Shown here one piece after another: positions 9,368 through 32,000 of a stretch of DNA of 32,000 nucleotides. Numbering within the stretch: the stretch's first letter is position 1; each line of letters begins with the position of its first letter. The stretch spans positions 60,059 to 92,058 of the forward strand of contig NZ_PGGB02000005.1 in assembly GCF_002803295.2 (NCBI RefSeq). Reading direction: 5' to 3'. This DNA is from Caedibacter taeniospiralis. Its GTDB lineage: Bacteria; Pseudomonadota; Gammaproteobacteria; Francisellales; Francisellaceae. The translations under genes were made by a program, and so were the position numbers. The notes beneath the pieces are model-generated. The model ran no database searches. It was given only the letters and a program-made list of their open reading frames with translations, and was not told the DNA's origin.

Positions 9368-9396
9368 AATGGAGCAATGTATACAGCAGTTACAAA

Positions 9397-11391: not shown

Positions 11392-11413
11392 GCGAGGATA
11401 TTGTCCCAATGCC
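11392..11413 (+). repeat. short dispersed intergenic repeat, copy 1 (GCGAGGATATTGTCCCAATGCC)
   Basis: Matches 17725-17745 with one mismatch and one 1-nt indel. Both copies are intergenic. Confidence 0.75.
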
Positions 11414-11482
11414 AAAAAGTCTGCAAAATAGTTTACGATGAGTATATAATGCGGATCATTGAATTATCGATCAACCATCAAC

Positions 11483-12967
11483 ATGCCTAAGTGTTTAAAT
11501 ATTCTGTTTGCTTCATCTGAAGCGGTGCCTTTTATAAAAACGGGGGGCTTGGCAGATGTAAGCGGTAGTTTGCCAAAAGCGTTAAGTCACTTGGGTCTCG
11601 CGGTATCTGTTATTATTCCTGCGTATCGCGAGGTATTAGCAAGTGTGGTTGATGCAAAAGTGGTGAGTCAATTTAGCGTTTTTGGGTTTGGCAAAATCTA
11701 TTACGTCAAACTGATTGAAGCACGAGTTCCAATTCCAAGCACGTCGCTTACATTCTGGTTTATTGATATCCCAGAGCTATTTGATCGTCCCCATGGTATC
11801 TACTTAGCAGAGGATGGTAAAGACTGGTGGGATAATGGCGAACGTTTTGCCATATTTTCTAAAGCGGTTACTGAAGTCGCCATGAATAGAGTCAAGCTGG
11901 ATTGGAAAGCAGATGTTGTGCATAGTAACGACTGGCAAACGGGAGTAATATCAGTTTTTCTTAAACTAGAAAAAAATTGCGCTAAAACCGTCTTTACGAT
12001 TCATAACATGGCATATCAAGGCAGTTTTCCGTATGAAGTATTTAAAGCCATGAACCTGCCAGAGCACTGGTGGCATAAGGATGGATTGGAATTTTATGGT
12101 AATTTTTCCATGCTCAAAGCAGGAATTTTATTTTCAGATATTGTCACAACGGTCAGTCCAACCTATGCAAAAGAAATATGTACGCCCAGGTTTGCTTATG
12201 GTCTTGAAGGGGTAATGCGTCGGTGTCAGCTTGAAGGTAAACTATTTGGGATTTTAAATGGAATAGATCAAGCCCATTGGAATCCGCAAAAGGATACACT
12301 CATTCCCTATCGGTATTCTGCAAGCTATCGATTGATGGCAAATAAATTTAAAAATAAACAGGCTTTACTGTCAGCACTAGGTGTCGGTGGTGGTATTGTA
12401 AACCTTGAAGCGCCACTATTTGGGTTAGTTGGCAGGTTAATTGAGCAAAAGGGCATCGATTTAATTCTGAGTGTTGTGCCTGATTTACTGACCTACAGCA
12501 ATGCAAATTTTGTGTTTCTTGGATCAGGTGATCATCATTTCGAGCACGCTATTAAGTTATTTGCAGAGCATTACCCTGATAGGGTTTTAGTACGCATTGG
12601 CTACGCTGAAAAGTTGGCACATATGATTGAAGCAGGGGCTGATCTGTTTTTGATGCCATCTCGTTTTGAACCCTGTGGACTCAACCAGCTCTATAGTTTG
12701 GCTTATGGCACGCTACCGATCGTTCACCACACAGGCGGCTTGGCAGATACGGTTGTAAATGCAAGCACAGAAAATATAGCAAGAGGTACCGCAACTGGTT
12801 TTGTTTTTTATGAGCCTACCGCGTATGCACTCAAAGAAACCATGTATTATGCTATCAGCCTTTTTGCTCAGAAAGAACGATGGAAGGGGATACAAAGAAC
12901 GGCAATGGCTCAAAATTTGAGCTGGGAAAACAGTGCTAAAGCGTATTTGGATTTATATTGTTTGTAA
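11483..12967 (+). CDS. glgA: glycogen synthase (GT5)
   Basis: The N-terminus ILFASSEAVPFIKTGGLADV matches the KTGGL signature. The C-terminal region reads PSRFEPCGLNQLY...GGLADTV. The ATG at 11483 is preferred over the TTG at 11459. Confidence 0.9.
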   Translation: MPKCLNILFASSEAVPFIKTGGLADVSGSLPKALSHLGLAVSVIIPAYREVLASVVDAKVVSQFSVFGFGKIYYVKLIEARVPIPSTSLTFWFIDIPELFDRPHGIYLAEDGKDWWDNGERFAIFSKAVTEVAMNRVKLDWKADVVHSNDWQTGVISVFLKLEKNCAKTVFTIHNMAYQGSFPYEVFKAMNLPEHWWHKDGLEFYGNFSMLKAGILFSDIVTTVSPTYAKEICTPRFAYGLEGVMRRCQLEGKLFGILNGIDQAHWNPQKDTLIPYRYSASYRLMANKFKNKQALLSALGVGGGIVNLEAPLFGLVGRLIEQKGIDLILSVVPDLLTYSNANFVFLGSGDHHFEHAIKLFAEHYPDRVLVRIGYAEKLAHMIEAGADLFLMPSRFEPCGLNQLYSLAYGTLPIVHHTGGLADTVVNASTENIARGTATGFVFYEPTAYALKETMYYAISLFAQKERWKGIQRTAMAQNLSWENSAKAYLDLYCL

Positions 12968-12985
12968 ACCTGACTATTCCAGAGT

Positions 12986-13010
12986 AGTCAGGTAAACCTG
13001 ACTTATTTTT
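12986..13010 (+). terminator. putative intrinsic terminator after glgA
   Basis: AGTCAGG-TAAA-CCTGACT stem-loop followed by TATTTTT. A competing upstream hairpin exists (see findings). Confidence 0.45.
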
Positions 13011-13055
13011 CAATAGTCACTAAGGTTAATGGAGTTTTTATTAGAGGTAAAAAAT

Positions 13056-15551
13056 ATGGTAAAAAATACAGAAAAAGCTTCTCAGATCATGGCACAGGTT
13101 GAGAGCGAAGTTGATAGTAATAAAGAGCAAATTGCAAAAAGCTTTATCCATTACTTATACAATTCACTGGGTCGAGAAATCGATTCTAAGGCACATTATC
13201 TGGAGCATGCGCTTGTTTATACCATTCGCGATCGACTGATGATTAATTGGAAAAAAACAGAACAAAGATACGCTATCAAAAATTTGAGGAAAGGATACTA
13301 TCTTTCCATGGAGTTTCTGATAGGACGTTCTTTGACCAATAGTCTGATCAATCTAGGATTGAAAGATATTACGCTTGCCGCCTTATATGATTTGGGTCTC
13401 AACTTTGAAGAAATTGAAGAGGCTGAGCATGATGCAGGGTTAGGCAATGGCGGTTTAGGAAGATTGGCCGCCTGCTTTATGGATAGTTGTGCCACATTGG
13501 CTTTGCCGGTTATGGGGTACGGATTGCGCTACGAATATGGAATGTTTAGGCAGCATATAAAAAATGGTTACCAGGTAGAAGAGCCTGATCAGTGGTTGCG
13601 CCATGGTTACTACCCCTGGGGATTAATGCGTAGAGAATATACCAGGGTGGTTAAGTTTGGAGGTAGAACCGTTAAATCAGTTCACCCTGACACAGGACGG
13701 CTCATGGTGAAATGGGAAGATACTTGCCCCGTATTGGCTGTGCCATTTGATGTTCCTGTACCTGGATTTAGCAATAATGTTGTCAATACCTTAAGATTAT
13801 GGTCAGCGGCAGCCGTTGAAGCGTTTAATCTCAATGCGTTTAACGCAGGCTCATATGCCTCTTCGGTGGCAGAAAAAAATAATGCAGAAAGTATCACAAT
13901 GGTACTTTATCCAAATGATGCAAGTGAAAATGGTAAGGAATTACGTCTTAAACAGCAGTATTTCCTGGTGTCAGCAAGTCTTCAGGATATTGTTGTGCAA
14001 TGGGCAGAGAAAAATAATAATGATTTTACTCAATTTGCTGAAAACAATACCTTTCAACTAAATGATACCCACCCAAGTCTTGCAATTGCAGAGTTAATGC
14101 GACTTTTAATGGATGAGTATGAGTTAGAATGGCAGGATGCCTGGGAGATAACGAGCAAAACCATGGCGTATACTAACCATACTTTATTGCCTGAAGCATT
14201 AGAAAAGTGGCATGTTTCACTCTTTGAGCGCCTATTGCCACGCCTGTTGGAAGTTATTTATGAGATCAATAAGCGGTTTTTAAATGTCATTGAGCAGAAA
14301 TGGTCAGACGATATCAGTAAACAGCGCGAGCTATCTATCATTGACGAAGATAATATGGTGCGCATGGCACATTTAGCCATCGTAGGCAGTTATTCGGTAA
14401 ATGGTGTCGCAGAGCTACATTCTCAGCTGTTAAAAGAGAGTTTGTTTAAAACGTTTTATGATTTATGGCCACAAAAATTTAATAACAAAACCAATGGCGT
14501 GACCCAAAGGCGCTGGCTGGCGGTTTGTAATCCTGAGCTTAAACAGTTATTGGAGGATAAAATTGGAGGGGATTGGATTGTAAATCTTGATGAGTTAAAA
14601 AAAATAGAAGCATTTGCAGAGGAGAGTGCATTTTGCGAGCGCTGGGAGAAAGTCAGACTTGCTAATAAAAAACGTTTAGCTAATTACATTAAAAAAGAAA
14701 CCGGAGTGGAGTTTGATCCCAGTGCGTTATTTGATGTTCAGGTAAAACGGATTCACGAATATAAGCGCCAGCTGTTAAATATTCTGCATGTTATTCATCT
14801 TTATAACAGGATTAAAAGAGGGCAAACTCAACATTGGACTAATCGCTGTGTGATTATTGGCGGCAAAGCAGCGCCAGGTTATTACATGGCAAAGCTTATT
14901 ATTAAGTTGATCAATAATGTGGCAGATAGGATTAACCATGATTTAGAAGTTGGGGATAAGCTTAAGGTTGTTTTTCTGCCAAATTACAGCGTTTCAGCAA
15001 TGGAAGTGATTTGTGCAGGAACAGATTTATCCGAGCAAATTTCTACAGCAGGCAAAGAAGCTTCAGGCACGGGTAATATGAAGTTTATGATGAATGGTGC
15101 GATCACCATTGGCACGCTCGATGGTGCTAATGTTGAAATATTAGAGGAAGTGGGTAACGAGAATTTTTTTCTCTTTGGATTAAAAACAGCTGAGGTTTCT
15201 GCGCTGCGCAAACATTACAACCCTGAGCACTTTATCCAAAATAATAACGACCTTAAACAAGTGATGGATAGGCTTGAGTCTGGATTTTTTAATGAAGAAG
15301 AACCGAATATTTTTGACAGCATCATAGGTTCATTAAAAAGCCCGTATGATCCCTGGATGACTTTAGCAGATTTTGCAGACTATCTACAGGCACAACAGCG
15401 GGCAGCGAATACCTTTCAAAATAAGGCGGGTTGGATAAAAATGAGCATCATAAACTGTGCGCGAAGCGGTCGTTTTTCATCAGATCGCACGATACGTCAA
15501 TACAATGATGAAATATGGAAGCTAAGCCCCGTGGGTATAGACAAAACGTAG
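13056..15551 (+). CDS. glgP: glycogen/maltodextrin phosphorylase (GT35)
   Basis: Contains the PLP-lysine motif EASGTGNMKFMMNGA, plus GLGNGGLGRLAACF and NDTHP. The ATG at 13056 has a GAGGT Shine-Dalgarno sequence 7 nt upstream. The ATG at 13029 is an alternative. Confidence 0.9.
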   Translation: MVKNTEKASQIMAQVESEVDSNKEQIAKSFIHYLYNSLGREIDSKAHYLEHALVYTIRDRLMINWKKTEQRYAIKNLRKGYYLSMEFLIGRSLTNSLINLGLKDITLAALYDLGLNFEEIEEAEHDAGLGNGGLGRLAACFMDSCATLALPVMGYGLRYEYGMFRQHIKNGYQVEEPDQWLRHGYYPWGLMRREYTRVVKFGGRTVKSVHPDTGRLMVKWEDTCPVLAVPFDVPVPGFSNNVVNTLRLWSAAAVEAFNLNAFNAGSYASSVAEKNNAESITMVLYPNDASENGKELRLKQQYFLVSASLQDIVVQWAEKNNNDFTQFAENNTFQLNDTHPSLAIAELMRLLMDEYELEWQDAWEITSKTMAYTNHTLLPEALEKWHVSLFERLLPRLLEVIYEINKRFLNVIEQKWSDDISKQRELSIIDEDNMVRMAHLAIVGSYSVNGVAELHSQLLKESLFKTFYDLWPQKFNNKTNGVTQRRWLAVCNPELKQLLEDKIGGDWIVNLDELKKIEAFAEESAFCERWEKVRLANKKRLANYIKKETGVEFDPSALFDVQVKRIHEYKRQLLNILHVIHLYNRIKRGQTQHWTNRCVIIGGKAAPGYYMAKLIIKLINNVADRINHDLEVGDKLKVVFLPNYSVSAMEVICAGTDLSEQISTAGKEASGTGNMKFMMNGAITIGTLDGANVEILEEVGNENFFLFGLKTAEVSALRKHYNPEHFIQNNNDLKQVMDRLESGFFNEEEPNIFDSIIGSLKSPYDPWMTLADFADYLQAQQRAANTFQNKAGWIKMSIINCARSGRFSSDRTIRQYNDEIWKLSPVGIDKT

Positions 15552-15855: not shown

Positions 15856-17586
15856 CTATTGAGTAAGTGCTGCTTCTGCCACAGAGTGATTTGTCAATAA
15901 GTAGCGTTTAGGCGTTTGTGCTAATAGATATCCTTGGTAAGGTTTACCCTGTTTAAAATACGTATCATAGTTATCGTCATCGGTCATTACAAACACACGC
16001 TGATCACTTTGCCAGATAGGCCAAAATTGCGCAGCGGTTCTTAAAGTTTTATCCGCCCCTGAGTCTGGCATTTTCGCTGTATTGGCCAGCTCTCCCTCAT
16101 TGGCAACAATCCAGGTTAAACGATTTAAATAAAACTGAGCGTCATAATAATAACCACCATAGTTGGCAACGATGGCATTTGGATAGGTTTTTAACAATAA
16201 CGCAACAATGTTTGTTAATGGCTTTACCGTTTTTTGGGCAAAATACTGCGAGCCAGACCAGCCTAAATTTAAAATAATCATCATCGCAAACACAAAGCAC
16301 AACATCATTGCTTTGAGGTTGTTTTTTCTTAAGTAACCAAATCCAACAATCGTTGTGACCAGAGCCACTATTGCCCCTGGCCAATAGAATGCTGCAATTT
16401 CACTAAAGAACATGGAAAAGTTTGAAATAAATGGCAACACCACAAAGGCAATGGCAATGATCAGGAAAAAAAACAGTGTGATTGCAACACTTGCCTTCGT
16501 CGATTTGCGCATTTCAGGTTCATTGAGAAGCTTATCAACGCGGCGTGCGATCAAGATGGCAAATGGCGTAATGATTGGAATTAAATAACCCATGAGTATT
16601 GATTTTGAGAAAGCAAAAAACAATAAAATCGCCATACCCCAAATAAATAAAAACCATTCATTTTCATGTTTTTTACGGTTTTCCCATTTCAGTAACACCG
16701 ATGTGAATGCCTGTGGTAAAAAGCCAAACCAAGGGAAAAAGCCGATGATAAAAATTCCAGCATAGACAAACTTACTCATCTGTCGCCCCTGCTCATCGGT
16801 GGCATAGCGCAAAATCTGTTGCACGATCACGTAGTAATAGAAAAACTCAGGATGCTGGTTATTCACTGCAATAACCCATGGTGCTGAAATTATTGTAACA
16901 ATAACCAAACCAAGGTAAAGACGGTAATCAAGTAACAGCCTATATTTTCCAACAACGATTGCCCATAGCCCAATAATCATCATTGGAAATACAATACCAA
17001 TAAGACCTTTGGTCATTACTGCAAGCCCAGAAAAAATAAAGGCATTCAATAACCAAAGATGTGCTTGCCAGCTCTTTTGAGCATATTGTCTTGATGCCCA
17101 GAAGGACAGCATTGTGATCGTCAGAAAAAATGCAATGCCGGCATCCAGATTGAGATAGCGACCACCACCTAAATATAAAATTGAGGTTCCCGTAATCAAA
17201 GCCGCCCAGAATGACACACGCCTTTTTTGGTAGACGATGCGGCAAACAATATAAACAAACCACACCCCAATAATCGATAACACAGGATTTGGCAGTCTTG
17301 CTGCCCAGATATTAAAACCAAAAATTTTTAAGGACAACGCCGTCAACCAGTAGATCATTGGCGGTTTTTCAAAATAAATAACCCCATCCAGGTGCGGCAC
17401 GATGTATTCGTGATTGACAAGCATCTCACGTGCGATTTCAGCATAACGCCCTTCATCCGGGGTAAACAGCACGGGTACGCCATAAAGGCATAAAGCAATT
17501 GCCATGATAATAGTCACTATTAATAAATCACACCAAAATATTCGATCCATTTGCCAACGAAGGCGACTCATCTTTTTTTCCATCAT
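15856..17586 (-). CDS. glycosyltransferase family 39 (ArnT/PMT-like, undecaprenyl-phosphate-sugar dependent)
   Basis: Polytopic membrane protein with an N-terminal DEGRYAEIAREM loop motif typical of the ArnT/PMT_2 family. The start is uncertain (ATG at 17586, 17583 or 17571). The track TTG at 17649 is unlikely. Confidence 0.75.
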   Translation of the reverse strand: MMEKKMSRLRWQMDRIFWCDLLIVTIIMAIALCLYGVPVLFTPDEGRYAEIAREMLVNHEYIVPHLDGVIYFEKPPMIYWLTALSLKIFGFNIWAARLPNPVLSIIGVWFVYIVCRIVYQKRRVSFWAALITGTSILYLGGGRYLNLDAGIAFFLTITMLSFWASRQYAQKSWQAHLWLLNAFIFSGLAVMTKGLIGIVFPMMIIGLWAIVVGKYRLLLDYRLYLGLVIVTIISAPWVIAVNNQHPEFFYYYVIVQQILRYATDEQGRQMSKFVYAGIFIIGFFPWFGFLPQAFTSVLLKWENRKKHENEWFLFIWGMAILLFFAFSKSILMGYLIPIITPFAILIARRVDKLLNEPEMRKSTKASVAITLFFFLIIAIAFVVLPFISNFSMFFSEIAAFYWPGAIVALVTTIVGFGYLRKNNLKAMMLCFVFAMMIILNLGWSGSQYFAQKTVKPLTNIVALLLKTYPNAIVANYGGYYYDAQFYLNRLTWIVANEGELANTAKMPDSGADKTLRTAAQFWPIWQSDQRVFVMTDDDNYDTYFKQGKPYQGYLLAQTPKRYLLTNHSVAEAALTQ

Positions 17587-22233: not shown

Positions 22234-23088
22234 ATGATAAAAGGGTATGGTTTTGGTTTTCTCTATGTTTTTCTTGTCGCTGCTTCGACCATTTGGCTAA
22301 ACAGTCTGGGTCAAGGCATAACCATTCCTATCCTTTTATTTTATACCTCGCTGACCTCAATATTGATTTTCAATTTGGTGAATATTAATCGGTTTAAGCA
22401 AAACCATGCGCTAATTTTGAGTTCCAAGAAAAATTGGCTTTATATGTCAATTTGCCTAATCTTCGTCTGGTATTTTACCTACTATGCAACAATTCACAGT
22501 TCTGCTGAATTTTTCATTGCGACAGCGTTTTTGACGGCAGCATTTATTTCTTCAGGGCTTGCCAAGAAATATTTTAAAACCTTGGCTTGTGTGTTCTCTT
22601 TGGGGTTGGTTTATTTTTATTCTTCTATCGATTCGCCTATCACTTTAGGGACCGCCATGCTTGCAGGGGCAGCAACTTATGCCTATTACCGAAGTTCTTA
22701 TCAATTTAGCCAAGAAACAAAAATGAGTGCGTTGGCAATTCTCTCCATTCGATTTTATCTGGTTTTGCTTTTTGCAGTGCTTTACATTGTGGCTTCAGGC
22801 GAGCTCATTCATCTAAAAATTTCGATTGATGAAATCGCGGTAATTGTCTTATTTGCATTGGTGAACATGGTAATGCCCGCTTATTTGTCGCAAACCTCTT
22901 TGCATGCTATCGGTGTCAGTAAGTTTACTTTTTTAAACACGCTCATCCCTGCTTTAACCTTCTTTTTGGATGCCATTTTTAATCATACTTGGCATATTCA
23001 AATGCTTGTTGCTTGTCTTTGTGCTACGCTGACCCTGAATGTAGATCAATGGGGACGGGCATTTAGCGCCCGCCAGCAACGTCAATAA
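22234..23088 (+). CDS. polytopic membrane protein, DMT/EamA-like permease (tentative)
   Basis: 284 aa with about 10 hydrophobic segments and a strong Shine-Dalgarno sequence (AAGGAAAGAGG). The family call rests only on size and topology. Confidence 0.45.
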   Translation: MIKGYGFGFLYVFLVAASTIWLNSLGQGITIPILLFYTSLTSILIFNLVNINRFKQNHALILSSKKNWLYMSICLIFVWYFTYYATIHSSAEFFIATAFLTAAFISSGLAKKYFKTLACVFSLGLVYFYSSIDSPITLGTAMLAGAATYAYYRSSYQFSQETKMSALAILSIRFYLVLLFAVLYIVASGELIHLKISIDEIAVIVLFALVNMVMPAYLSQTSLHAIGVSKFTFLNTLIPALTFFLDAIFNHTWHIQMLVACLCATLTLNVDQWGRAFSARQQRQ

Positions 23089-23809
23089 AACTTCCTGTGA
23101 CATACGAGGCTTCATCGGACAACAACCAAAGAATGGCATTTGCTACTTCACCTGGCTCACCACCTCTTTGCATCGGTAAGGAATCTTTGATGCGATCAAC
23201 CCGATTAGGCTCACCACCGCTGGCATGGATATCAGTATAAATGAATCCAGGTCTGACACAGTTCACACGAATTCCCTCATTTGCCACTTCTCGTGATAGG
23301 CCTATGGTTAAAGTATCGATTGCTCCTTTTGAGGCGGCATAGTCCACATATTCTCCAGAGGAACCTAAGCGTGATGCGGCAGAGGAAACATTAACAATCG
23401 CACCTCCACTTCCCCCTTGTTTCGTAGACATGCGTTTCACAGCCTCACGTGCGCATAAGAAATGGCTTGTGATGTTGGTCGTGAAAATTCGGTTGAGTCG
23501 GGCCATATCCATTTGATCAACACGCATTTTTTGCTCTAGGATTCCCACATTGTTGACTAAGGCTGTTAGGAGACCTAGTTCTTTGTCTACCGTTTTAAAG
23601 AGCTTTTCAACAACGGATTCTTGGCTAACATCCCCTTCAATAGCAATTGCTATCCCGCCAGTTTTTTGGATTTGAGCAACCAAATTCTGAGCTGACTGTT
23701 GCTTACGAAGGTAGTTAATACATACAGCGTAACCTTGTGCTACCGCTTTTAATGCAGTTTCAGCACCAATTCCACGGCTTGCACCTGTGATCAACATTAC
23801 TTTTTGCAT
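23063..23809 (-). CDS. short-chain dehydrogenase/reductase (classical SDR)
   Basis: TGASRGIG cofactor motif, NNVG, and the catalytic YAASK motif. 248 aa with an AAAGGA Shine-Dalgarno sequence. Confidence 0.85.
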   Translation of the reverse strand: MQKVMLITGASRGIGAETALKAVAQGYAVCINYLRKQQSAQNLVAQIQKTGGIAIAIEGDVSQESVVEKLFKTVDKELGLLTALVNNVGILEQKMRVDQMDMARLNRIFTTNITSHFLCAREAVKRMSTKQGGSGGAIVNVSSAASRLGSSGEYVDYAASKGAIDTLTIGLSREVANEGIRVNCVRPGFIYTDIHASGGEPNRVDRIKDSLPMQRGGEPGEVANAILWLLSDEASYVTGSFIDVAGGR

Positions 23810-23844
23810 GTGGTAGTCCTTTCTCGGTCTGGCACCTCATTATT

Positions 23845-24534
23845 CTAGTCAATATTGGACTTACTGATAATGTGCGTACTCCATTTTTTCTTGAGCAGCA
23901 GGCATTTTTTGTTGAGGTAGTTTAACGGAAAGGGCATGGGGCGCATAATATCAACCATCAAGATAACGCGAATGCTGTCGCTGTGATTCGTGACTTCATG
24001 GTCATAGCGATCATCAATGATAATGCTTTCACCCATTTTCCAAGTATAGGTCTTGTCAGATACCCTAATAAAAGGAGGGTTGTTTTTGGGGATCGTAATT
24101 CCAAGGTGATACCTCAGTATGCCTGCATAAGGGCCCTGATGTGCTGCAAGGCAGACGCCAGGCTCCAGCACAGCGATCGTTACATTAATCGGATCGGGCA
24201 TGCCTTTGATAAGCTCAAGTAGTTTAGGGCAATCTTTTTGGGCATGGGGGTTGATTTGCCACATGAAAGACACATAGTAGAGTTTCCAGTTTTCAGAAAC
24301 CTCTTTGGCTCGAATGGGATCAATATCTTTGTAGGCAGTCAAATTTCTGGTTGAGACTAGCTGATCAATTTCTTCTTTAATTTCATCAAAGTGGTCTTCT
24401 AATATTTTTGAGTCTGGAAAAACCTTTTTTGAATCCAAAAAAGGCGGGCGCCTGTCCCAGCCTGCATAAGTTAAAAAAAGAGCATTTAAGAGGCTTCTGA
24501 AAAAAGCGCTATTCTTACTGATTGATCCCTTCAT
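23845..24534 (-). CDS. aspartyl/asparaginyl beta-hydroxylase-family Fe(II)/2OG oxygenase (soluble, LpxO/AspH-like fold)
   Basis: HQGPYAGILRYHLGITIP ... IIIDDRYDHEVTNHS ... RVILMVDIMRP matches the family core (PF05118-type). It lacks the obvious membrane anchors of LpxO. Confidence 0.7.
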   Translation of the reverse strand: MKGSISKNSAFFRSLLNALFLTYAGWDRRPPFLDSKKVFPDSKILEDHFDEIKEEIDQLVSTRNLTAYKDIDPIRAKEVSENWKLYYVSFMWQINPHAQKDCPKLLELIKGMPDPINVTIAVLEPGVCLAAHQGPYAGILRYHLGITIPKNNPPFIRVSDKTYTWKMGESIIIDDRYDHEVTNHSDSIRVILMVDIMRPMPFPLNYLNKKCLLLKKKWSTHIISKSNID

Positions 24535-24545
24535 TTTTCCCTCTC

Positions 24546-25379
24546 TTAATTTCTAGGTTTTCTGGCAATGATATAGCAGAACTGGCCTATTTTTTGTCTG
24601 AGTTTATCCCTGGACTGAATATAGTCATGAATTTTCCCACTTTCTTTTAAAGAGGTTAATTTATTCAGTACCCCATTGAGCTCATCTGGGGTTAATAAGG
24701 AAAAATGCGAGTCGCCATCCCTGAATTCTTTCTTATAAAGAGAGTCAGCATCGAAATATCCATTGTGTTGGATGATGGTAGAAGTGGGTACGATTTTTTC
24801 TGGGGTGGCATAGCCAAACGTATTGAGTATTTCTACCAATTGATCATCAGATAAAAAGCGTTTTTTCATTCTATCTACGGCAGGCTTAATCAATTCACCC
24901 CACCACACGCCATCATCCAATTGTTCGTGAGTGATGGTGTTGATGATCAATCTCCCATTGGGTTTTAAAGCCTTAAGCGCATATTCAAAAAAGCGTCTGT
25001 GATTTTTAAAGTTTGTGTCTACTTCATCTATGTGATGAAGCGACTGGTTGCACATAATAGCATCGAATGTATTTTCTTTAAATGGAAGCTCAGAAATATC
25101 ACATCGAATTAGGTCATCATTTTTCAGGTCTTTTTCTGTATATTTTTCTTTTGCTTTGGCAAGCATTCCCTGGCTAAAATCTGCGGAAATCACATTTGGA
25201 ATGAATTTTTTTAAAGGGACTGCATAGTTACCTGTACCACACCCTGCATCCAGAACCTTAATATTTTCCAGTTTCTCCTGTATCGTTAGAATGTAGCCAA
25301 GGACAATTTCAATACCGACTGCGCTTCTGGTTTTATCATAATTTTTGCTGGTTTCGTCATAGCGCTCATACTTACTCAT
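24546..25379 (-). CDS. class I SAM-dependent methyltransferase
   Basis: Motif I VLDAGCGTGNYA, followed by post-I and motif II spacing typical of the Methyltransf_11/25 type. Its start overlaps the stop of the upstream Trm112-like gene (ATGA). Confidence 0.85.
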   Translation of the reverse strand: MSKYERYDETSKNYDKTRSAVGIEIVLGYILTIQEKLENIKVLDAGCGTGNYAVPLKKFIPNVISADFSQGMLAKAKEKYTEKDLKNDDLIRCDISELPFKENTFDAIMCNQSLHHIDEVDTNFKNHRRFFEYALKALKPNGRLIINTITHEQLDDGVWWGELIKPAVDRMKKRFLSDDQLVEILNTFGYATPEKIVPTSTIIQHNGYFDADSLYKKEFRDGDSHFSLLTPDELNGVLNKLTSLKESGKIHDYIQSRDKLRQKIGQFCYIIARKPRN

Positions 25380-25561
25380 TTGCTTAACTCCTTGTCGCTG
25401 ATTTTGATTGCTTCACTGCTGATTAAATTGGGTATGCCATCCTTGATGAGATAGGCGACACCGATCTCTTTTGAGATTAAGCGGTTATTTGCCTCATCAT
25501 AAATTAGAGGTTGCCTGGTGGTTGGGCAAACAAGATAATTGAGTAGTTCCTTGTTAAACAT
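25376..25561 (-). CDS. Trm112p-like / UPF0434 (YcaR-like) small protein
   Basis: The 61-aa MFNKELLNYLVCPTTRQPLIYDE...AYLIKDGIPNLISSEA aligns with the YcaR/Trm112 pattern (LL..L.CP...L.......L.......YP..DGIP.L). I chose the internal ATG at 25561. The zinc-knuckle cysteines are mostly absent. Confidence 0.7.
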   Translation of the reverse strand: MFNKELLNYLVCPTTRQPLIYDEANNRLISKEIGVAYLIKDGIPNLISSEAIKISDKELSK

Positions 25562-26603
25562 TTTTAGCGTTCTCCGTTGCTGAGTTGAAGTTAATGATAG
25601 ATTGTAAAGGTACTGGGGAAAAGCCAAGGCGTTCTTTTATAGCCTGTGTTGTGCGTCCTGCCTCAATGATCTTGTAATTATGTTGTAGGGCATATTGATA
25701 CAAATTGACATACAACATGGTGTAAGGGCTGTATTCAGTTAAGGAGTAATCCACCCCAAGCGCCCAAAAATGCAGCGTGTCATGGTCTAAAAATACGATA
25801 CCAGCAGCGACTCGCTGCTCGCCATGCTTGATCTCAAGTACCGTTGCAATGGCATCGCAGCTTTTTAGAAAATTGTACATCGGGCCTTTCGGATAGTAAG
25901 CCCCTGTCCCATATTTGTCAGTGGTCTGATGAATCAAATCGACAACCGCTTCTAAATCAGCATCCCGAATGTTGTACCACTTTGCAGAGGAGTCGGTTGC
26001 ATTGTATTTTCGTATTTGCCTATTTACTTCTTGTCGCCCATGTCTAGGTAGCTTTGCAATAATTTCATCTAAACTGGAGTGTGGAGCTATCTCTGTCCTA
26101 AAACGATTCCACATAGGATTGATTTTGTACTCATGCTTGCTAAAAATATCCAAGGGATAGCTTAAGGAATGAGTATCAATATTTAAAACACCGCAGCATT
26201 CTATTTGTTCTTTTTGGCGGATTGCTTTCAAAGAGCTCAAGATTTTTTCAATTACGATGTTTTCATGGCCTTTGGCCGCCAAAATTCTTGAATCGCTAAC
26301 GTGCATAATATGAGAGAAGAGCGCTTTGGTATCAGCAGAAAAATCATAGTTAGTGCTTTGGCTTAGCACTTTGAAGGTGTCTACATTTTTTTGTAGGTAT
26401 AAAGGGAGAAAGCCAACAATATCATCCTTGTGTTTAACAACGATGTAGAATGTTTTTAAGGTAGGAAGCAACGGAAATTGCTCAACAGCATTTAAAAGTT
26501 CCCAGCTATAAAATACAGATGCCCCCACAGATTTTTGAAATTTTTCGTATGGAGCGTGTTCAATGCTCTTAAGACCTTCAAAAACAGAAACTTCAAAACT
26601 CAA
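25554..26603 (-). CDS. FemAB-like / GNAT-fold acyltransferase family protein (PF04339 / PF13480-like)
   Basis: 349 aa. The C-terminal LHFWALGVDYS...SPYTMLYVNLYQYALQHNYKIIEAGRTTQAIKERLGFSPVP resembles the conserved end of the FemAB-like family. It starts at TTG, preceded by an AGGGGG Shine-Dalgarno sequence. Confidence 0.55.
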   Translation of the reverse strand: MSFEVSVFEGLKSIEHAPYEKFQKSVGASVFYSWELLNAVEQFPLLPTLKTFYIVVKHKDDIVGFLPLYLQKNVDTFKVLSQSTNYDFSADTKALFSHIMHVSDSRILAAKGHENIVIEKILSSLKAIRQKEQIECCGVLNIDTHSLSYPLDIFSKHEYKINPMWNRFRTEIAPHSSLDEIIAKLPRHGRQEVNRQIRKYNATDSSAKWYNIRDADLEAVVDLIHQTTDKYGTGAYYPKGPMYNFLKSCDAIATVLEIKHGEQRVAAGIVFLDHDTLHFWALGVDYSLTEYSPYTMLYVNLYQYALQHNYKIIEAGRTTQAIKERLGFSPVPLQSIINFNSATENAKNV

Positions 26604-26625
26604 GATCGCCCCCTAGCTAATTTAT

Positions 26626-26655
26626 ATTCTATGGTGTCGTGATTTAATAAATCAA
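26626..26655 (-). promoter_or_regulatory. candidate sigma70 promoter for the minus-strand 5-gene operon
   Basis: On the minus strand: TTGATT, an 18-nt spacer, then TAGAAT, about 20 nt upstream of the TTG start. This is pattern matching only. Confidence 0.3.
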
Positions 26656-26982
26656 TGGCACTACCTCAAGCAAGCACAGGTAAGTAACCACAAGATTTTA
26701 ATCTCTTCGGGATATATTTCCCGCTGCTTGCGGCAGGGAGTTTCATTTGAGCCCAGTTTTCAAATTTATTATGATTTTTTGCAAAAAAGCAATCAAATGG
26801 AAATGAAACTTAGGAGCGAATTCTAGCGTAAAACGTAAGGCAATACAAAACAAAAATTAGGTTTTTGCTATTTCAGGGAAGTGTAAGAAAAAGTGATGAA
26901 GGTGTTGTTTAATTCCTGTAAATATTGTAATTTTATGGCAGTTCGCACAAACTTGGCATAGCTCAGGTAAAGAGATAACGAA

Positions 26983-27372
26983 GTGATTAAGATTCAACTT
27001 AATTAGGGAAGCACAATGCTGTGAAAATGTGCGTAAATTACGTTGGTCAAAGGGCGTGATCTGTGCCCATATTGCCAAGCCCTGTCAGAAGAGATTATGA
27101 AGAGAAGGAGAGTGGGGAAAAGCATGTTCTGTCCACGTTATCGTTGCGAACGATGTCATCAGGACTTTGATGACTTAACTAATAGCATTTTCACAGCGTG
27201 CCATCAACCCCTGAGGGTGTGGATTTTACGCCTTTATTTTATGGGTTTAAAGTTATCCAATGAGCAGATTGCAAAGAAGTTTGTGTATAATGCAAGAAAA
27301 AAGAGAAAGGTCTTACCTGACCACTCTTTAGAGGCTTTTTTATGTAGAAAACCAACATTGGAGAAAGCATGA
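26983..27372 (+). pseudogene. IS1595-family transposase remnant (N-terminal zinc-ribbon/HTH part only, frameshifted, DDE domain missing)
   Basis: One frame reads LIREAQCCENVRKLRWSKGVIC. It continues in another frame as CPYCQ...YRCERCHQDFDDLTNSIF...PLRVWILRLYFMGLKLSNEQIAKKF. This matches the transposase zinc-ribbon N-terminus of IS1595/ISXO2-like elements. No catalytic domain follows. Confidence 0.55.
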
Positions 27373-28268
27373 CCATCACCTCCCTGAAACACCAAAAGAA
27401 CCATCTAAAAAATTAAAGGAACTGCTTTACAGCTCGGAATTAAAATTTTTTATGGAGTCTCATAGTGCATTAAGTGCCAAAATTGCAGAGGATGCAGGAT
27501 TTGAGGCTTTATGGGCCTCACGTCTCTCCATTTCTGCTTCAATGGGGTTAAGTGATAGAAACGAAGCCTCTTGGACACAGGTTCTAGAGGTAGTTGAGTT
27601 TATGGCTGACCATACTAAAGTTCCTATTTTAATGGATGGCGACACTGGCTTTGGCAACTTCAATAATGTGCGCCGTTTAGTGAAAAAGCTCTCCCAAAAA
27701 GGAGTGGCTGGGGTATGCCTGGAAGATAAGCTATTTCCAAAGCTTAATTCTTTCTTAGGGGATGGTCAGGAATTAGCAGATATTGAAGAGTTCAGTGGAA
27801 AAATTAAAGCTGCCAAAGATAGCCAACTGCATGATGATTTTTGTGTGGTAGCACGTACTGAAGCGCTTGTTGCAGGTCATGGCATGGACGAAGCTTTGAA
27901 GCGTGCAGATCGTTTTCATGCTGCTGGTGCAGATGCCATCTTGATTCATTCTAAAAAAGATACGGGAGACGAGGTGCTAGAATTTTGTAAACGGTGGGAG
28001 AATCGTTGCCCTGTCGTGATCGTGCCGACAAAATACTACAAAACTCCCACCACCACTTATCGGGAAGCTGGCGTGTCAACTGTAATTTGGGCTAACCATA
28101 GCTTGCGTGCGTCTATTGCAGCGATGAAGCGTGTAACTTCTCTGAATTAAAAAAGAAGAAGCTGTTTCTGGTATTGAGCATGAAATTGCCTCTCTTCACG
28201 ATGTGTTCTCATTAACAAATGAATTTGAAGTGCAGGAAGCTGAAAGAAAATACGGTATGCCATCATGA
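27369..28268 (+). pseudogene. pepM: phosphoenolpyruvate mutase (PepM), reading frame broken twice (segments 27369-27416, core 27452-28150, tail 28146-28268)
   Basis: The core carries the PepM-specific EDKX5NS motif ([10 protein letters not shown], 27722-27751), [11 protein letters not shown] and [10 protein letters not shown]. The N-terminal 15 codons follow a GGAGA Shine-Dalgarno sequence. The C-terminal 40 codons ([21 protein letters not shown]...AERKYGMPS) are homologous to PepM ends. Both end segments sit in a different frame from the core. Confidence 0.8.
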
Positions 28269-29377
28269 TTTGTCCAGAATATTTTACCAATGCTCTCATT
28301 GATCGTGGCGTGCAATTTTTCACAGGGGTGCCTTGCTCCTATTTAACCCCATTGATCAATGAGGTCATCGCTACCGAGGTCACGGATTACGTGATTGCTT
28401 CAAGCGAAGGAGATGCCCTTGCTATGGCTTCAGGAGCATGGCTCGCTGGCAAATTAGGATTGGTGATGTGTCAAAATTCAGGACTTGGCAACATGATTAA
28501 TCCTTTAACATCATTAAATGCCCCTTTTAACATTCCCGTTTTGCTATTGATCACGTGGAGAGGCAAGCCTGGTGAGCCCGATGAGCCTCAGCATGAGGTA
28601 ATGGGGAAAATTACAACAGGTCTTTTAGATTTAATGGGGATTCAATGGAGCTATTTTCCCGAGACTGAAGCCGAGGTTTTGGCATCCTTGGATAAAGCCA
28701 TGTCAGTCATGGGCAATGCCCATTGTCCTTATGCCCTCATTTTACAAAAGGACAGTTTCAAAACAGGAAAGCCAGCGCCTAAAGTGGTTGAAGATGCGCA
28801 CTTGCCAACTCGTGAGGAAGTATTGAGCACTTTCTTAAAATCTTTGCCCGATGAGGTCTCTGTGATTGCAACCACAGGAAAAACAGGACGGGAGCTATAC
28901 ACGTTGCAAGATCATTCAAAGCATTTCTACTGCGTAGGCTCAATGGGCTATGCTAATGCTTTAGCTCATGGAGTGGCCTTAAATAGCAAAAAACCAGTGT
29001 TTGTGATTGATGGTGATGGAGCAGCGATTATGCATCTTGGAAATCTCACCAGTATTGGTGCCAGTGCGCCGAGTAATTTAGTACATGTTATTTTAGATAA
29101 TGGAACGTATGATTCTACAGGGGCTCAAGCTACCGTTTCGGAGTACGTCGATTTTGCAGCATTAGCCAAAAGTTTGGGCTATAAAAAACAATTTCGCTGC
29201 TCTTCGCTAAGGGATTTTTCAAATGCTTTGAAAACCGTAGATTCTGGTGGACCTGCATTAATTCATTTGAAAATAAAAAGCGGTTCAATGAAAAATTTAG
29301 GGCGTCCAGCGGTTAAGCCGCATGAAATTGCTCGTCGGTTACGTCAACACATTCAGAAAATGGAACAAGGGGAATAG
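28265..29377 (+). CDS. ppd: phosphonopyruvate decarboxylase (ThDP-dependent)
   Basis: 370-aa fused alpha/beta ThDP enzyme with FFTGVPCSYL at the N-terminus and the ThDP motif GDGAAIMHLGNL...LDNGTYDSTG. Its ATG overlaps the stop of the PepM tail frame (ATGA). Confidence 0.85.
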   Translation: MICPEYFTNALIDRGVQFFTGVPCSYLTPLINEVIATEVTDYVIASSEGDALAMASGAWLAGKLGLVMCQNSGLGNMINPLTSLNAPFNIPVLLLITWRGKPGEPDEPQHEVMGKITTGLLDLMGIQWSYFPETEAEVLASLDKAMSVMGNAHCPYALILQKDSFKTGKPAPKVVEDAHLPTREEVLSTFLKSLPDEVSVIATTGKTGRELYTLQDHSKHFYCVGSMGYANALAHGVALNSKKPVFVIDGDGAAIMHLGNLTSIGASAPSNLVHVILDNGTYDSTGAQATVSEYVDFAALAKSLGYKKQFRCSSLRDFSNALKTVDSGGPALIHLKIKSGSMKNLGRPAVKPHEIARRLRQHIQKMEQGE

Positions 29378-29380
29378 TTT

Positions 29381-30613
29381 ATGCCAGAAATGATTAAAAA
29401 AGCCAAGCTCAATCCAAGCTTGTTAAACCTACAAATTTACGCTTCTAAAGCTATTTCCTTAGAGGTCAAAAAGAACCCTGACATAGTGGGGCTAAGCTTT
29501 GGTGAGCCAGAGTTTGGTCCCCCCCCTTATGCCCTAAAAGACATTGAAGATAAAGACCTTTCTATCGGCAACTTTTTAAACGCGGTAAAGCGCTATGAGG
29601 ACCCGAAAGGATCATTAGAGCTTAGGCAGGCTATCGCTGCTTGGTATAAGCAGCGTTACAATTTAGATGTGAACCCTGAGAAAGAAATTATGGTGACACA
29701 CGGAGGGGTTGAGGCCATTACCCTAGCCATTTTGTCTACCAGTGAAGTGGGTGATATCATTGCGGTGACGGACCCCTCTTACATGCTTTATTCTCGAACG
29801 ATTACAACCCTAGAGCGTAAGTGCCATACGATTCATCGTCCAGTAGGCGGGTATGAATATAAGAAAATTCTGGAAGATAAAGCTATTCTGCAGTCAGACT
29901 TTGCCAAAGCAAAAACGATCATTATTAATTCACCAGAAAATCCTTCTGGGTATGTGGTTGATCCTACTGAATGGGAAATGATTGCCGATTACTCCAAAAA
30001 AATGGGGCTATGGGTCATTCATGATGAGGTTTACGATACAATGGCGTTCGAGCGAAAGCACATTCCATTTCGAGCTAGTTGTTCTTTGCCACCCTATTCA
30101 ATTATGATCAACAGCTTTTCTAAAAAATTTGGTATTCCAGGCTTACGTATTGGCTGGATAGTCGCAAATGAAGAGGTAATTAATTTAGCGAGCAAGATTC
30201 ATGACTATATGTATCTTGGGGTCAATATTCAGTATGAAAAAATTGCAACTCGCTTACTGTCTGACCAAAGAAATATGGAATGGCTGGCAGGCATTACTCA
30301 GAAAATAAAGCAACGCGCAGAAAAAGCAATGCACGTTCTGGGTGAACAGCAAGGGTTTTCCTGGCCTCGTCTGCCTCTTGGCGCAATGTTTCTTTTCCCG
30401 AATGTGCGTGCTTTGTATGATAAAATGCCTGAAGCCTATCGGTCAAAAGGTGTAGTTGTAGGGGATGCTGTAGCACAATATTTGATGAAAGAGAAAAAAG
30501 TGGCTGTCGTGCCTGGTTCAGTGTACGGTTCGGAAAGCAGTGAGCATGTACGCCTGGTATTGTGTACAACTGATAAAGAGTTTGATCTTGCGCTTGACCG
30601 CCTTCAAGCTTAA
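29381..30613 (+). CDS. PLP-dependent aminotransferase, class I/II (AspC-like fold)
   Basis: NSPENPSG, the PLP-lysine motif NSFSKKFGIPGLRIGW, and C-terminal VRL. 410 aa, starting 3 nt after ppd. Confidence 0.85.
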   Translation: MPEMIKKAKLNPSLLNLQIYASKAISLEVKKNPDIVGLSFGEPEFGPPPYALKDIEDKDLSIGNFLNAVKRYEDPKGSLELRQAIAAWYKQRYNLDVNPEKEIMVTHGGVEAITLAILSTSEVGDIIAVTDPSYMLYSRTITTLERKCHTIHRPVGGYEYKKILEDKAILQSDFAKAKTIIINSPENPSGYVVDPTEWEMIADYSKKMGLWVIHDEVYDTMAFERKHIPFRASCSLPPYSIMINSFSKKFGIPGLRIGWIVANEEVINLASKIHDYMYLGVNIQYEKIATRLLSDQRNMEWLAGITQKIKQRAEKAMHVLGEQQGFSWPRLPLGAMFLFPNVRALYDKMPEAYRSKGVVVGDAVAQYLMKEKKVAVVPGSVYGSESSEHVRLVLCTTDKEFDLALDRLQA

Positions 30614-30624
30614 GGGCGTCAATC

Positions 30625-31446
30625 ATGAAAACTGAAAAAAATTCCTTGATCGAACAAGGATTTGCTCATTTTAAAAACGCGCTGCATCCTTCTGCATTTT
30701 CTGCTTTGAGTGAGGAATATGAACGTCTGGTTGTAAGAGCGCGAGAAATTATAGCTCACACTAAGAAAGAAAATATCAGTTTGGGAGATTATTACCAGCA
30801 GCATGATGGCGAAATTATTGTTGTACCTGAAGCGGAGCAACCGACCGAGCCTTGCCGTTTTGAATATATTGCGCATTGTTCAAAGCGTTTAAATGATGAG
30901 GTTGTTCAGTATGTGAAAGATTTAATTGAAACGCTAACTGGCGAGTCATTTGTACTGTTTAAAGATAAGTGCAATCTTAAAAATCCAGGAGGCGGTGCTT
31001 TTCCTCCACACCAGGATATTACTGCATATCGCCATTTCAAGCCAAAGTTCCATATTACTGCGGCAGTCATGCTGGATGACTCAACCGTAGAAAATGGTTG
31101 TTTGGAAATGGCAAGTAATTATCACCAAAGTCTTGGGACTCAAGCATTAGGCATTCTGGATTTTTATGAGGGAGGTCCTCGCAATGGAGACATTAAGGAT
31201 GAGATTAGTCAGCAATTTGATTGGAGGTCTATTCCAGCGGCGCCTGGTGATGTAGTGCTTTTTAATTCCTTTGTGCCACATCGATCAGCAAAGAATACTT
31301 CGCAAAAGAGTCGACGGAATTTCTTTTTTACTTTTAATGTGGCTCGAGAAGGCAACTGGTATGAGCATTATTATGCTGCAAAAAAGCTGGACTTTAATAA
31401 TCCGATGTTTCATGTTTCGACCCCAACGCAGCATCGAGGCAAGTAA
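30625..31446 (+). CDS. PhyH-family Fe(II)/2-oxoglutarate dioxygenase (PhnY-like candidate)
   Basis: 273 aa with the facial triad candidates HQD (PPHQDITAY) and distal His (FVPHRSAKN), followed by an Arg-rich 2OG-binding region. The context is a phosphonate operon. Confidence 0.75.
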   Translation: MKTEKNSLIEQGFAHFKNALHPSAFSALSEEYERLVVRAREIIAHTKKENISLGDYYQQHDGEIIVVPEAEQPTEPCRFEYIAHCSKRLNDEVVQYVKDLIETLTGESFVLFKDKCNLKNPGGGAFPPHQDITAYRHFKPKFHITAAVMLDDSTVENGCLEMASNYHQSLGTQALGILDFYEGGPRNGDIKDEISQQFDWRSIPAAPGDVVLFNSFVPHRSAKNTSQKSRRNFFFTFNVAREGNWYEHYYAAKKLDFNNPMFHVSTPTQHRGK

Positions 31447-32000
31447 ATGAGTAAACAGGCACGTTTATTTACCCCAGGACCTTTAAATACTTCACAACAG
31501 GTTAAGGCATCGATGCAGATTGACCTTGGAAGCCGTACCGAGACACTTGCCGATTTGACTCAGAATATTCGGAATGAGCTTGAGTCTATTGCTGAATGCG
31601 GGAAAGAGTGTACCTCTGTTCTGTTGCAGGGAAGCGGCACTTTTGCTGTGGAGGCAATGCTAAGTACGTTGATTCAGGCAGATGATTGTGTATTGGTCAT
31701 ATCTAATGGTGTATATGGTGACCGGATGGCTAAAATATGCCAGATACATGGACTGCCTTTTTTTGTCTTGCAGCAGGACCCAGCGGCTCCGATTCAGCTT
31801 GATGAGGTTGAGAAATTTCTCAAAAATGAGCCATGCATCACACACATTGGGGTGGTTCAATTTGAGACTGCTGTAGGGATATTGAATAATATCGACGCTT
31901 TACTAGTTTTAGCTGAGCAGCATGCTTGCAAAGTTTTGGTGGATGCAATGAGTTCCTTTGGAGCATTACCATTGCCCTATCAAAGTACTGCTTTGGTTGC
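31447..32000 (+). CDS. phnW: 2-aminoethylphosphonate:pyruvate aminotransferase, 3' end beyond window
   Basis: This ORF is absent from the track because no stop is reached. My own translation is MSKQARLFTPGPLNTSQQVKASMQIDLGSRTE...VLLQGSGTFAVEAMLSTL...ISNGVYGDRM...VDAMSSFGALP. That is the class V aminotransferase pattern of PhnW. The ATG immediately follows the dioxygenase stop. Confidence 0.85.
   Translation, partial: MSKQARLFTPGPLNTSQQVKASMQIDLGSRTETLADLTQNIRNELESIAECGKECTSVLLQGSGTFAVEAMLSTLIQADDCVLVISNGVYGDRMAKICQIHGLPFFVLQQDPAAPIQLDEVEKFLKNEPCITHIGVVQFETAVGILNNIDALLVLAEQHACKVLVDAMSSFGALPLPYQSTALV

Follow-up and report, generated by a model that had tools for sequence, protein, structure and literature searches.

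Does an obligate endosymbiont of a ciliate still make a phosphonate, and what kind of compound was its gene cluster built to produce? The question arises from a 32,000-nucleotide stretch of the Caedibacter taeniospiralis 51K chromosome (the window, whose positions are used as cluster coordinates throughout), in which five genes, pepM, ppd, AT1, PhyH and phnW, form a compact operon that runs off the end. They belong to a rearranged cluster in decay, an uncharacterised variant of the 2-aminoethylphosphonate (AEP)-type phosphonate clusters that was already included in an inventory published in 2022. Judged by sequence, the cluster comprises about 12 genes, from 22234 to ~33580, and is about twice the size first noted. 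We consider it likely that this is a chromosomal copy of a widespread cluster in which the order has been rearranged and pepM is dead, and that the ancestral product was a small, exported, phosphonopeptide-like compound and not a decoration of lipid or glycan.

The phosphonate core

The five genes are packed exactly as a first-pass annotation of the window had described them. The ppd ATG at 28265 and the pepM TGA (28266-28268) interlock as ATGA, a junction of -4 nt, and the junctions that follow are +3, +11 and 0 nt (Table 1). The PepM motif EDKX5NS, also reported at that stage, is located at nucleotides 27722-27751. On its frame-corrected translation PepM scores 369.7 bits against TIGR02320 (cut-off 319.55), far ahead of the scores against the sister NCBIfam hidden Markov models (HMMs) for phosphonopyruvate hydrolase (215 bits), methylisocitrate lyase (145 bits) and isocitrate lyase (28 bits); the protein sides with PepM and not with either lyase. 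Ppd reaches 424.6 bits against TIGR03297 (cut-off 312.5), carries the thiamine diphosphate motif GDG...NG at residues 250-280 and, at 370 residues, is of the same length as its counterpart in the related cluster L012. The 184-residue piece of PhnW inside the window gives 193 bits against TIGR03301, and the full-length protein, taken from a sister contig (L009) with 99.9% DNA identity, gives 397.8 bits (cut-off 360.8).

All three assignments, with PepM frame-corrected and PhnW completed from L009, lie past their equivalog cut-offs. The core that the first-pass annotation had read from them is borne out by these matches: PepM would convert phosphoenolpyruvate (PEP) to phosphonopyruvate, Ppd would take this to phosphonoacetaldehyde and PhnW would form AEP. 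Of the checks suggested with that annotation, HMM searches confirmed PepM, Ppd and PhnW, and extension past 32000 through L009 supplied the end of phnW (363 residues, ending at ~32538), followed by another aminotransferase of class V, AT(V). RefSeq proteins of C. taeniospiralis are matched exactly by Ppd, PhyH, AT1, XerD and one hypothetical protein, and the names phosphonopyruvate decarboxylase, phytanoyl-CoA dioxygenase family protein and PLP-dependent aminotransferase (PLP, pyridoxal 5'-phosphate) are already in use there.

Inactivation of pepM

Is the first gene of the pathway functional? The longest uninterrupted open reading frame (ORF) of pepM, 27452..28150, encodes 232 residues compared with 286-300 in homologues, and lacks the 40 C-terminal residues as well as some of the first strand. 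Mention of a 'repaired operon' in the first-pass annotation rightly implied that pepM is broken, but the damage was left undescribed; two frame corrections are needed. The sole start with a Shine-Dalgarno-like GGAGA, ATG 27369, opens a frame that runs into TAA 27414-27416. In the -1 frame the conserved N-terminal segment goes on, with no ATG, GTG or TTG until ATG 27452, and the lesion is one nucleotide missing between ~27372 and 27406. Near the 3' end an additional A at 28145/28146 (CTG-A-ATT) creates the TAA at 28148-28150 and leaves the last 40 codons in the next frame. A tblastn search with the intact homologue P0018, 86% identical, places its ...TSLIKKEES against ...TSLN-stop in the window, with IKKEEAVSG in the next frame.

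The third lesion is a substitution of glycine by arginine (CGT at 27521-27523), which turns LWASGLS into LWASRLS within the conserved W-x-S-G-L segment, presumed to bind substrate. Comparisons were made with the top 120 PepM relatives listed, or 119 when the window's own entry, P0021, is set aside. Glycine occupies this column in 117 of the 119 and arginine in none, and it is the lone column at which the window deviates among those at least 95% conserved. None of the 119 needs a frame correction; the only truncated entry, P0021, is the 232-residue ORF itself.

The lesions are unlikely to be artefacts because the 51K assembly consists of Illumina MiSeq 2x300 reads, with Oxford Nanopore data serving only to join contigs (PMC5773718, PMC7297999), because an independent Logan contig (L010, run ERR3813248) is 100% identical over 26948-28350, across both indels, and because the 3' indel lies in an AA dinucleotide and not in a long homopolymer. 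We conclude that pepM is a pseudogene and that de novo formation of the carbon-phosphorus (C-P) bond has very probably been lost in this genome. The working C-P pathway first proposed is unlikely, since pepM has three lesions here and is deleted in another population.

That second C. taeniospiralis population is represented by L009 (run SRR28719869, seen in five samples). The contig matches window 26565-27007, continues with ~660 bp that hold a truncated DDE_5 transposase (L009 475-1140) and then resumes as window 30303-32000 with two mismatches. With 27008-30302 replaced, a transposase-like remnant, pepM and ppd are gone and AT1 is reduced to its last 94 codons; the PhyH, PhnW and AT(V) ORFs are intact. 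The remnant, an ORF that in 51K ends on the pepM ATG, has no Pfam or NCBIfam match, and its CxxC...CxxC pattern and place at the rearrangement junction make it look like the N-terminal part of a transposase, left over from an insertion sequence (IS). The DDE_5 fragment of L009 is of another IS type: two distinct mobile-element scars occur at one spot. Promoter-like sites in the intergenic region before the remnant are no more frequent than in shuffled sequences.

The other genes give a different impression. Catalytic motifs of Ppd, AT1, PhyH and PhnW are all intact, and ppd, AT1, PhyH, phnW, AT(V) and the genes for the Fem-like, methyltransferase (MT) and AspH-like proteins show no excess of singleton changes, relative to orthologues, at otherwise invariant columns (Ppd shows none). 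Since these genes look intact, the loss of pepM is suggested to be recent; either it was inactivated very recently or the rest of the cluster is still under selection.

Table 1. Features of the phosphonate cluster of C. taeniospiralis 51K (window positions; SDR, short-chain dehydrogenase/reductase; 2OG, 2-oxoglutarate; SAM, S-adenosylmethionine)
Feature	Coordinates	Strand	Basis
Polytopic membrane protein, 284 aa, candidate DMT/EamA-type exporter	22234..23088	+	Multiple hydrophobic segments; homologues in L012, L005 and L013 clusters
SDR, 248 aa	23063..23809	-	NCBIfam PRK06123, 428 bits
AspH-like (Asp/Asn beta-hydroxylase-family 2OG oxygenase), 229 aa, soluble	23845..24534	-	PF05118, 124 bits
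Class I SAM-dependent methyltransferase (MT), 277 aa	24546..25379	-	Generic Pfam/NCBIfam methyltransferase matches
Trm112-like small zinc-ribbon protein, 61 aa from ATG 25561, presumed MT partner	25376..25561	-	PF03966, 41.6 bits
Fem-type tandem-GNAT transferase, 349 aa	25554..26603	-	FemAB_like, 39.8 bits (threshold 27); Acetyltransf_6, 39.8 bits
Intergenic region between divergent cluster halves	26604..27042	.	L009 left breakpoint at 27007/27008
Cys-rich zinc-ribbon-like ORF, 109 codons	27043..27372	+	ORF translation; ends on pepM ATG
pepM (conceptual, pseudogene)	27369..28268	+	TIGR02320 on frame-corrected translation
ppd, phosphonopyruvate decarboxylase, 370 aa, intact	28265..29377	+	TIGR03297; = WP_100551360.1 exactly
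AT1, class I/II PLP enzyme, 410 aa	29381..30613	+	PF00155
PhyH-family Fe(II)/2OG dioxygenase, 273 aa	30625..31446	+	PF05721
phnW (AEP transaminase PhnW/AepZ), first 184/363 codons in window	31447..32000 (window edge)	+	TIGR03301
Second class V aminotransferase AT(V), 350 aa	~32528-33580 (from L009)	after phnW	Best NCBIfam match BhcA (aspartate-glyoxylate aminotransferase), below cut-off

The wider cluster and its relatives

A gene attaching AEP to something else was at first thought to lie perhaps beyond base 32000. The tailoring and transfer genes are instead upstream, in the minus-strand half at 22234-26603, and in relatives they are collinear with the operon. The early remark that no cytidylyltransferase or LicD gene is visible holds for the enlarged cluster: neither these nor a CDP-alcohol transferase is found among its genes or in the syntenic L012 and L001, and in the whole window a cytidylyltransferase-like domain occurs solely in HldE (3459-5021).

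In L012 a single strand carries pepM-ppd-AT1-PhyH-phnW-AT(V)-FemAB-like-MT-Asp_Arg_Hydrox-SDR, with a 293-residue ORF converging on the SDR gene, and identity to the window is 80% for PepM, 69% for Ppd and 73% for AT1. A Ramlibacter metagenome-assembled genome (MAG; L001) has ppd-AT1-PhyH-phnW-AT(V)-Fem-Trm112-MT-AspH consecutively, and Roseateles (L005) and Serratia plymuthica (L013/L014) have pepM-ppd-AT1-PhyH-phnW-Fem-membrane ORF in common with the window. The suggestion that the two genes between ppd and phnW matter for the product is well founded, AT1-PhyH being a conserved part of the pathway in the same order in L012, L005, L001 and L013. This type of cluster is not confined to intracellular bacteria; it is widespread in free-living Proteobacteria and features in the published inventory (PMC8942020).

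Relative to the order in L012, one inversion of the pepM..AT(V) block would yield the divergent layout of 51K, with the remnant at 27043-27372 at the junction. The SDR and membrane protein genes converge with a 26-nt overlap, as in L012. Identities are those of a mosaic. PepM, Ppd, AT1, PhyH, PhnW, AT(V), the SDR (75% to the one that ends the L012 cluster, 57-60% to L017/L019) and the membrane protein (57% to L012, 31% to the L005/L013 homologues) are nearest to L012. The Fem-like (61-65%), Trm112 (62-66%), MT (76-79%, to L018/L019/L020) and AspH-like (81%, to L018/L019) proteins are nearest to the low-GC loci L017-L020 and share 36-52% with L012; MT and AspH-like proteins show 52-55% and 51-54% identity, respectively, to L012/L001. 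A 61-residue Trm112p gene occupies the equivalent position in L017-L020, with a homologous stretch in L001. This pattern suggests that part of the cluster was swapped by recombination.

Gene fusions add to the picture. Ppd and AT1 form one 806-residue protein in Serratia (L013 10918-13338), and AT1 and PhyH are joined in the 693-residue P0178. As Rosetta-stone evidence these fusions argue for a functional link between Ppd, AT1 and PhyH and would favour a phosphonate as the substrate of AT1.

Some features of individual relatives are recorded here for their own sake. In L017, a 29%-GC MAG labelled 'Burkholderiales bacterium', the cluster without pepM is eroding in its turn: AT1 is split into ORFs of 117 and 294 residues (1162-2377) and the AspH-like protein is cut to 140 residues (6655-7077), whereas both are intact in L018. 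The L012 cluster (36% GC), the nearest collinear one, is flanked by genes for a phage-type integrase and a mitochondrial carrier family protein (17224-17520, 4436-5698). The latter family is unusual in bacteria, which hints that the L012 carrier is intracellular or host-associated. In Bowmanella pacifica (L004, 4090-12181) a 44%-identical PhyH homologue lies amid genes for a TonB-dependent receptor, an NPP-type phosphodiesterase, a ureidoglycolate-lyase-like protein, a HAD hydrolase and DUF5690, a locus that may serve phosphorus scavenging, perhaps by an uncharacterised catabolic route for phosphonates or phosphodiesters.

Predicted product

What might the cluster have made? PhyH gives 89.1 bits against PF05721 (threshold 22) and retains the iron triad H129-x-D131...H219. 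Its sole NCBIfam match is to the PhnY*-type methylphosphonate hydroxylase NF052437, at 124.3 bits against a cut-off of 500, the score of a homologue and not an equivalog, and its closest relative in a scan of species-representative genomes is 52% identical. Homology and the fusions suggest that PhyH probably hydroxylates the carbon beside phosphorus, the alpha-carbon of a phosphonate; alpha-hydroxylation is the usual reaction of PhnY*/FzmG homologues (Li & Horsman, PMC8942020). A catabolic function for the pairing of PhnW with a PhnY*-like enzyme was considered and set aside: genes for PhnX, PhnZ, PhnA and C-P lyase are all absent, and both Ppd and PepM act in biosynthesis.

AT1 scores 189.8 bits against PF00155, and its top NCBIfam match, GntC, reaches 223 bits, below the cut-off of 415. 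The PLP lysine lies within SFSK at residues 245-248. Members of this subfamily are often, not always, neighbours of PepM, and homologues occur on PepM-bearing contigs of Dickeya, Aeromonas, Xenorhabdus, Buttiauxella, Spartinivicinus, Azospirillum and Pseudomonas. PF00155 places AT1 in the class I/II fold, and a phosphonoalanine-forming aminotransferase of the PalB/PnaA type is one candidate function. From homology and the Ppd-AT1 and AT1-PhyH fusions, AT1 would work directly before or after PhyH.

Sequence and profile searches of the PDB gave no match to the Fem-like protein. The AlphaFold2 (AF2) model, with a pLDDT of 92.1, has as its best Foldseek matches in the PDB the Weissella FemX (TM 0.65-0.68, E 5e-14), the aminoacyl-tRNA-dependent peptide synthases Sbb17/Sba18 (TM(target) 0.76-0.78) and MprF and aminoacyl-phosphatidylglycerol synthases. 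Acetyl-CoA-dependent tandem GNATs match the model less well (TM 0.38-0.57). The fold points to an enzyme that probably charges an amine with the amino acid of an aminoacyl-tRNA, and in the pathway it would aminoacylate the amine of the phosphonate.

The PDB sequences nearest to MT are generic methyltransferases and phosphoethanolamine N-methyltransferases (E ~1e-8). A role as a DhpI-like phosphonate O-methyltransferase was not supported by the PDB sequence search, in which no dehydrophos enzyme was matched. The AspH-like protein reaches the cut-off of neither the OlsC model (130.7 bits, cut-off 450) nor the LpxO model (125.2 bits, cut-off 500). LpxO has a membrane anchor; the AspH-like protein has no hydrophobic anchor (maximum Kyte-Doolittle value 1.16). 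We propose that MT and the Trm112-like protein would methylate the compound, the AspH-like enzyme would hydroxylate it further, the SDR would provide a redox step and the membrane protein would export it. The ancestral product is thus likely to have been an exported, aminoacylated and methylated derivative of AEP or hydroxy-AEP. We found no characterised product for this cluster family in the literature, and the Caedibacter genome papers and the Dual-Seq paper with its supplement are silent on the cluster.

Several points weigh against this interpretation. The product is predicted, and all steps past AEP are inferred. Two reactions are candidates for AT1, either phosphonopyruvate to phosphonoalanine, the reaction proposed by Li & Horsman for PF00155 enzymes (PMC8942020), or phosphonoacetaldehyde to AEP. 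The exporter assignment is weak, as the EamA match of the membrane ORF gives 21.9 bits against a cut-off of 28.2 and is seen in one of four orthologues. That this ORF is a transporter of the DMT (drug/metabolite transporter) type was not confirmed, EamA being below threshold, and the single-sequence AF2 model (pLDDT 50) was too poor for use. The nearest named relatives of the AspH-like protein, OlsC and LpxO, and a Fem fold common to MprF-type lipid aminoacylases mean that the product may be a lipid. With regard to pepM, the glycine replaced in the third lesion is one that we take, from the Mytilus PepM structures, to lie in the substrate-binding segment of the active site; the kind of run that ERR3813248 represents and the strain behind SRR28719869 could not be confirmed.

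The distribution of the genes is a further difficulty. A Burkholderia version, pepM-AT1-PhyH-phnW, has no ppd. The low-GC loci L017-L020 (29-32% GC) have AT1-PhyH-AT(V)-Fem-Trm112-MT-AspH with no pepM, ppd or phnW nearby; as far as the contigs reach, L017 and L019 also carry two major facilitator superfamily (MFS) genes and an SDR gene, L018 has one MFS gene and the L020 contig stops within MT. Such MFS transporters are lacking in the pepM-containing versions. In L007 an AT1-PhyH pair sits beside non-ribosomal peptide synthetase (NRPS) and ATP-grasp genes. Because of these arrangements in L017-L020 and L007, the tailoring module is not strictly bound to an adjacent C-P synthase, and it may not be strictly phosphonate-specific.

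Alternative explanations

Could the surviving genes act on AEP obtained from the host? The tailoring genes would then be active on ciliate AEP, which would make pepM and ppd dispensable and account for the survival of PhyH, PhnW, the Fem-like enzyme and the others. AEP-phosphonolipids are abundant in the membranes of Paramecium and Tetrahymena cilia (PMC9222137), every cluster gene but pepM looks intact, the pepM-less tailoring module of the 29-32% GC genomes comes with MFS transporters, and the second population retains intact PhyH, PhnW and AT(V) ORFs. However, AT1 is cut to 94 residues in that population, where the module is also being dismantled, the Caedibacter cluster has no evident importer, and a recent inactivation explains the intact genes equally well. 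We regard such use of host AEP as unlikely. A bolder proposal, that the symbiont is shifting from its own C-P synthesis to host AEP, that the tailoring genes yield an aminoacylated phosphonate with a role in symbiosis, conceivably as killer toxin or in immunity, and that L017-L020 represent the end state, is more unlikely still.

Another possibility is that the cluster decorated the cell envelope, with a phosphono-aminolipid or a modified lipid or glycan in place of a soluble metabolite. Lipid or glycan decoration is the role of most known bacterial AEP clusters (PMC8942020), and both the relationship of the AspH-like protein to the acyl-chain hydroxylases OlsC and LpxO and the occurrence of the Fem fold in MprF and aminoacyl-phosphatidylglycerol synthases fit it. 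Nevertheless, the cluster and its syntenic relatives contain no PntC-type cytidylyltransferase, LicD, CDP-alcohol phosphatidyltransferase or acyltransferase, the AspH-like and Fem-like proteins are soluble and without a membrane domain, and the OlsC and LpxO scores are far under their cut-offs. Related clusters also have transporter genes, and one has NRPS and ATP-grasp genes. On balance envelope decoration is improbable, and we prefer a small exported compound.

A fully functional operon that makes AEP or hydroxy-AEP de novo, its frameshifts being sequencing errors or overcome by recoding or slippage, is highly improbable: the corrected PepM is 86% identical to an intact homologue with one deviation at columns conserved to at least 95%, and ppd is coupled to the pepM stop by the ATGA overlap, but the assembly is Illumina-based (PMC5773718) and L010 repeats both indels exactly, the 3' indel lies in an AA dinucleotide while the 119 other listed homologues need no correction, the glycine to arginine change holds whatever the reading frame, and the gene is deleted outright in the second population.

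Genomic setting

The first-pass annotation supposed a Legionellales-type intracellular bacterium. The host is C. taeniospiralis, as the exact RefSeq protein matches show, a member of the Thiotrichales, family Fastidiosibacteraceae, with a genome of 1.32 Mb and 41.3% GC (PMC7297999). It is an obligate R-body 'killer' endosymbiont of Paramecium tetraurelia, and the identity of the killer toxin of 51K, a killer stock, is still not established (PMC5773718). Named sources among the top 120 PepM relatives include Enterobacterales, Burkholderiales, Pseudomonas, Aeromonas and others, with none from the Fastidiosibacteraceae. This pattern fits horizontal acquisition, short of proof, and no tRNA gene or integrase that would flag the cluster as an island was found within the window.

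The remainder of the window is ordinary chromosome, with xerD, lpxH, hldE, mpl, malQ-glgB-glgA-glgP, an ArnT-like gene, glnA, rppH and ptsP. The full glycogen set malQ, glgB, glgA and glgP (7772-15551) is kept in this 1.3-Mb obligate endosymbiont; GlgB varies in length in the protein collection, from 603 to 655 residues with one fragment of 389. Adjoining xerD, a 401-residue ORF at 4-1209 (+) joins a PD-(D/E)XK nuclease domain to no more than the final 65 positions of the AAA-ATPase_like model and probably derives by truncation from a mobile or defence-related gene.

Biological significance

The cluster exemplifies a widespread family, found in Serratia, Roseateles, Ramlibacter and Burkholderia, for which no product has been reported and which combines an AEP core with AT1-PhyH, a Fem-fold transferase and, often, MT/Trm112, AspH-like and SDR genes. 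Culturable carriers such as Serratia plymuthica, whose locus lies in CP012096.1 / CP006250.1, are better targets for product discovery than Caedibacter. The two fusions, Ppd-AT1 and AT1-PhyH, limit the orders in which the steps can occur. The Caedibacter copy chiefly informs on gene loss in a young, host-restricted symbiont, with a frameshifted pepM in one population and an IS-associated deletion in another, inside a Paramecium host that is itself rich in the pathway intermediate AEP. As 51K is a killer stock with a broken pepM, the killer trait needs no de novo phosphonate synthesis.

Comparison with known phosphonate systems

The canonical AEP core PepM-Ppd-PhnW/AepZ, as in Bacteroides fragilis and Tetrahymena, has the same three enzymes in the same logical order, with EDKX5NS present here. 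The Caedibacter locus differs in that pepM is a pseudogene, AT1 and PhyH stand between ppd and phnW, genes for a cytidylyltransferase or a lipid/glycan transferase are absent, and seven more tailoring and transport genes are present. The 'CDP-OH' phosphonolipid clusters of Burkholderiales also combine an AEP core with a 2OG oxygenase, whose predicted product is 1-hydroxy-AEP (PMC8942020, section 13), but carry two PntC cytidylyltransferases and phospholipid-synthesis genes where the Caedibacter cluster has none. With the PhnY*/PhnZ system of AEP catabolism and the FzmG-type alpha-hydroxylases, the window PhyH shares the match to a PhnY*-type model and the iron triad; on the other hand it scores 124 bits against a cut-off of 500, has no PhnZ (HD-domain), phosphonatase or C-P lyase for company and stands in a biosynthetic context.

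Dehydrophos, from Streptomyces luridus, is a PepM/Ppd-derived phosphonate whose assembly uses a 2OG dioxygenase, a PLP aminotransferase, peptide-bond formation by a GNAT/Fem-type enzyme dependent on aminoacyl-tRNA, and a SAM methyltransferase. The same enzyme classes occur in the window, a likeness of logic and not of membership, with no sequence-level orthology found. The dehydrophos pathway runs via hydroxyethylphosphonate, whereas here PhnW would form AEP.

Counterparts also appear in the 2022 inventory of Li & Horsman as gene-cluster families 864/857 (Salmonella enterica 85-0120 and Serratia plymuthica S13), in which an AEP core is accompanied by an additional PF00155 aminotransferase (PMC8942020, section 14). 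We match the Serratia plymuthica loci L013/L014 to family 857 on the basis of species and gene content rather than strain or accession. Like the window they carry pepM, ppd, AT1, PhyH, phnW, the Fem-like gene and the membrane ORF, at 31-73% identity. They differ in having Ppd and AT1 fused (806 residues) and in having other genes in place of those for MT, Trm112, AspH and SDR.

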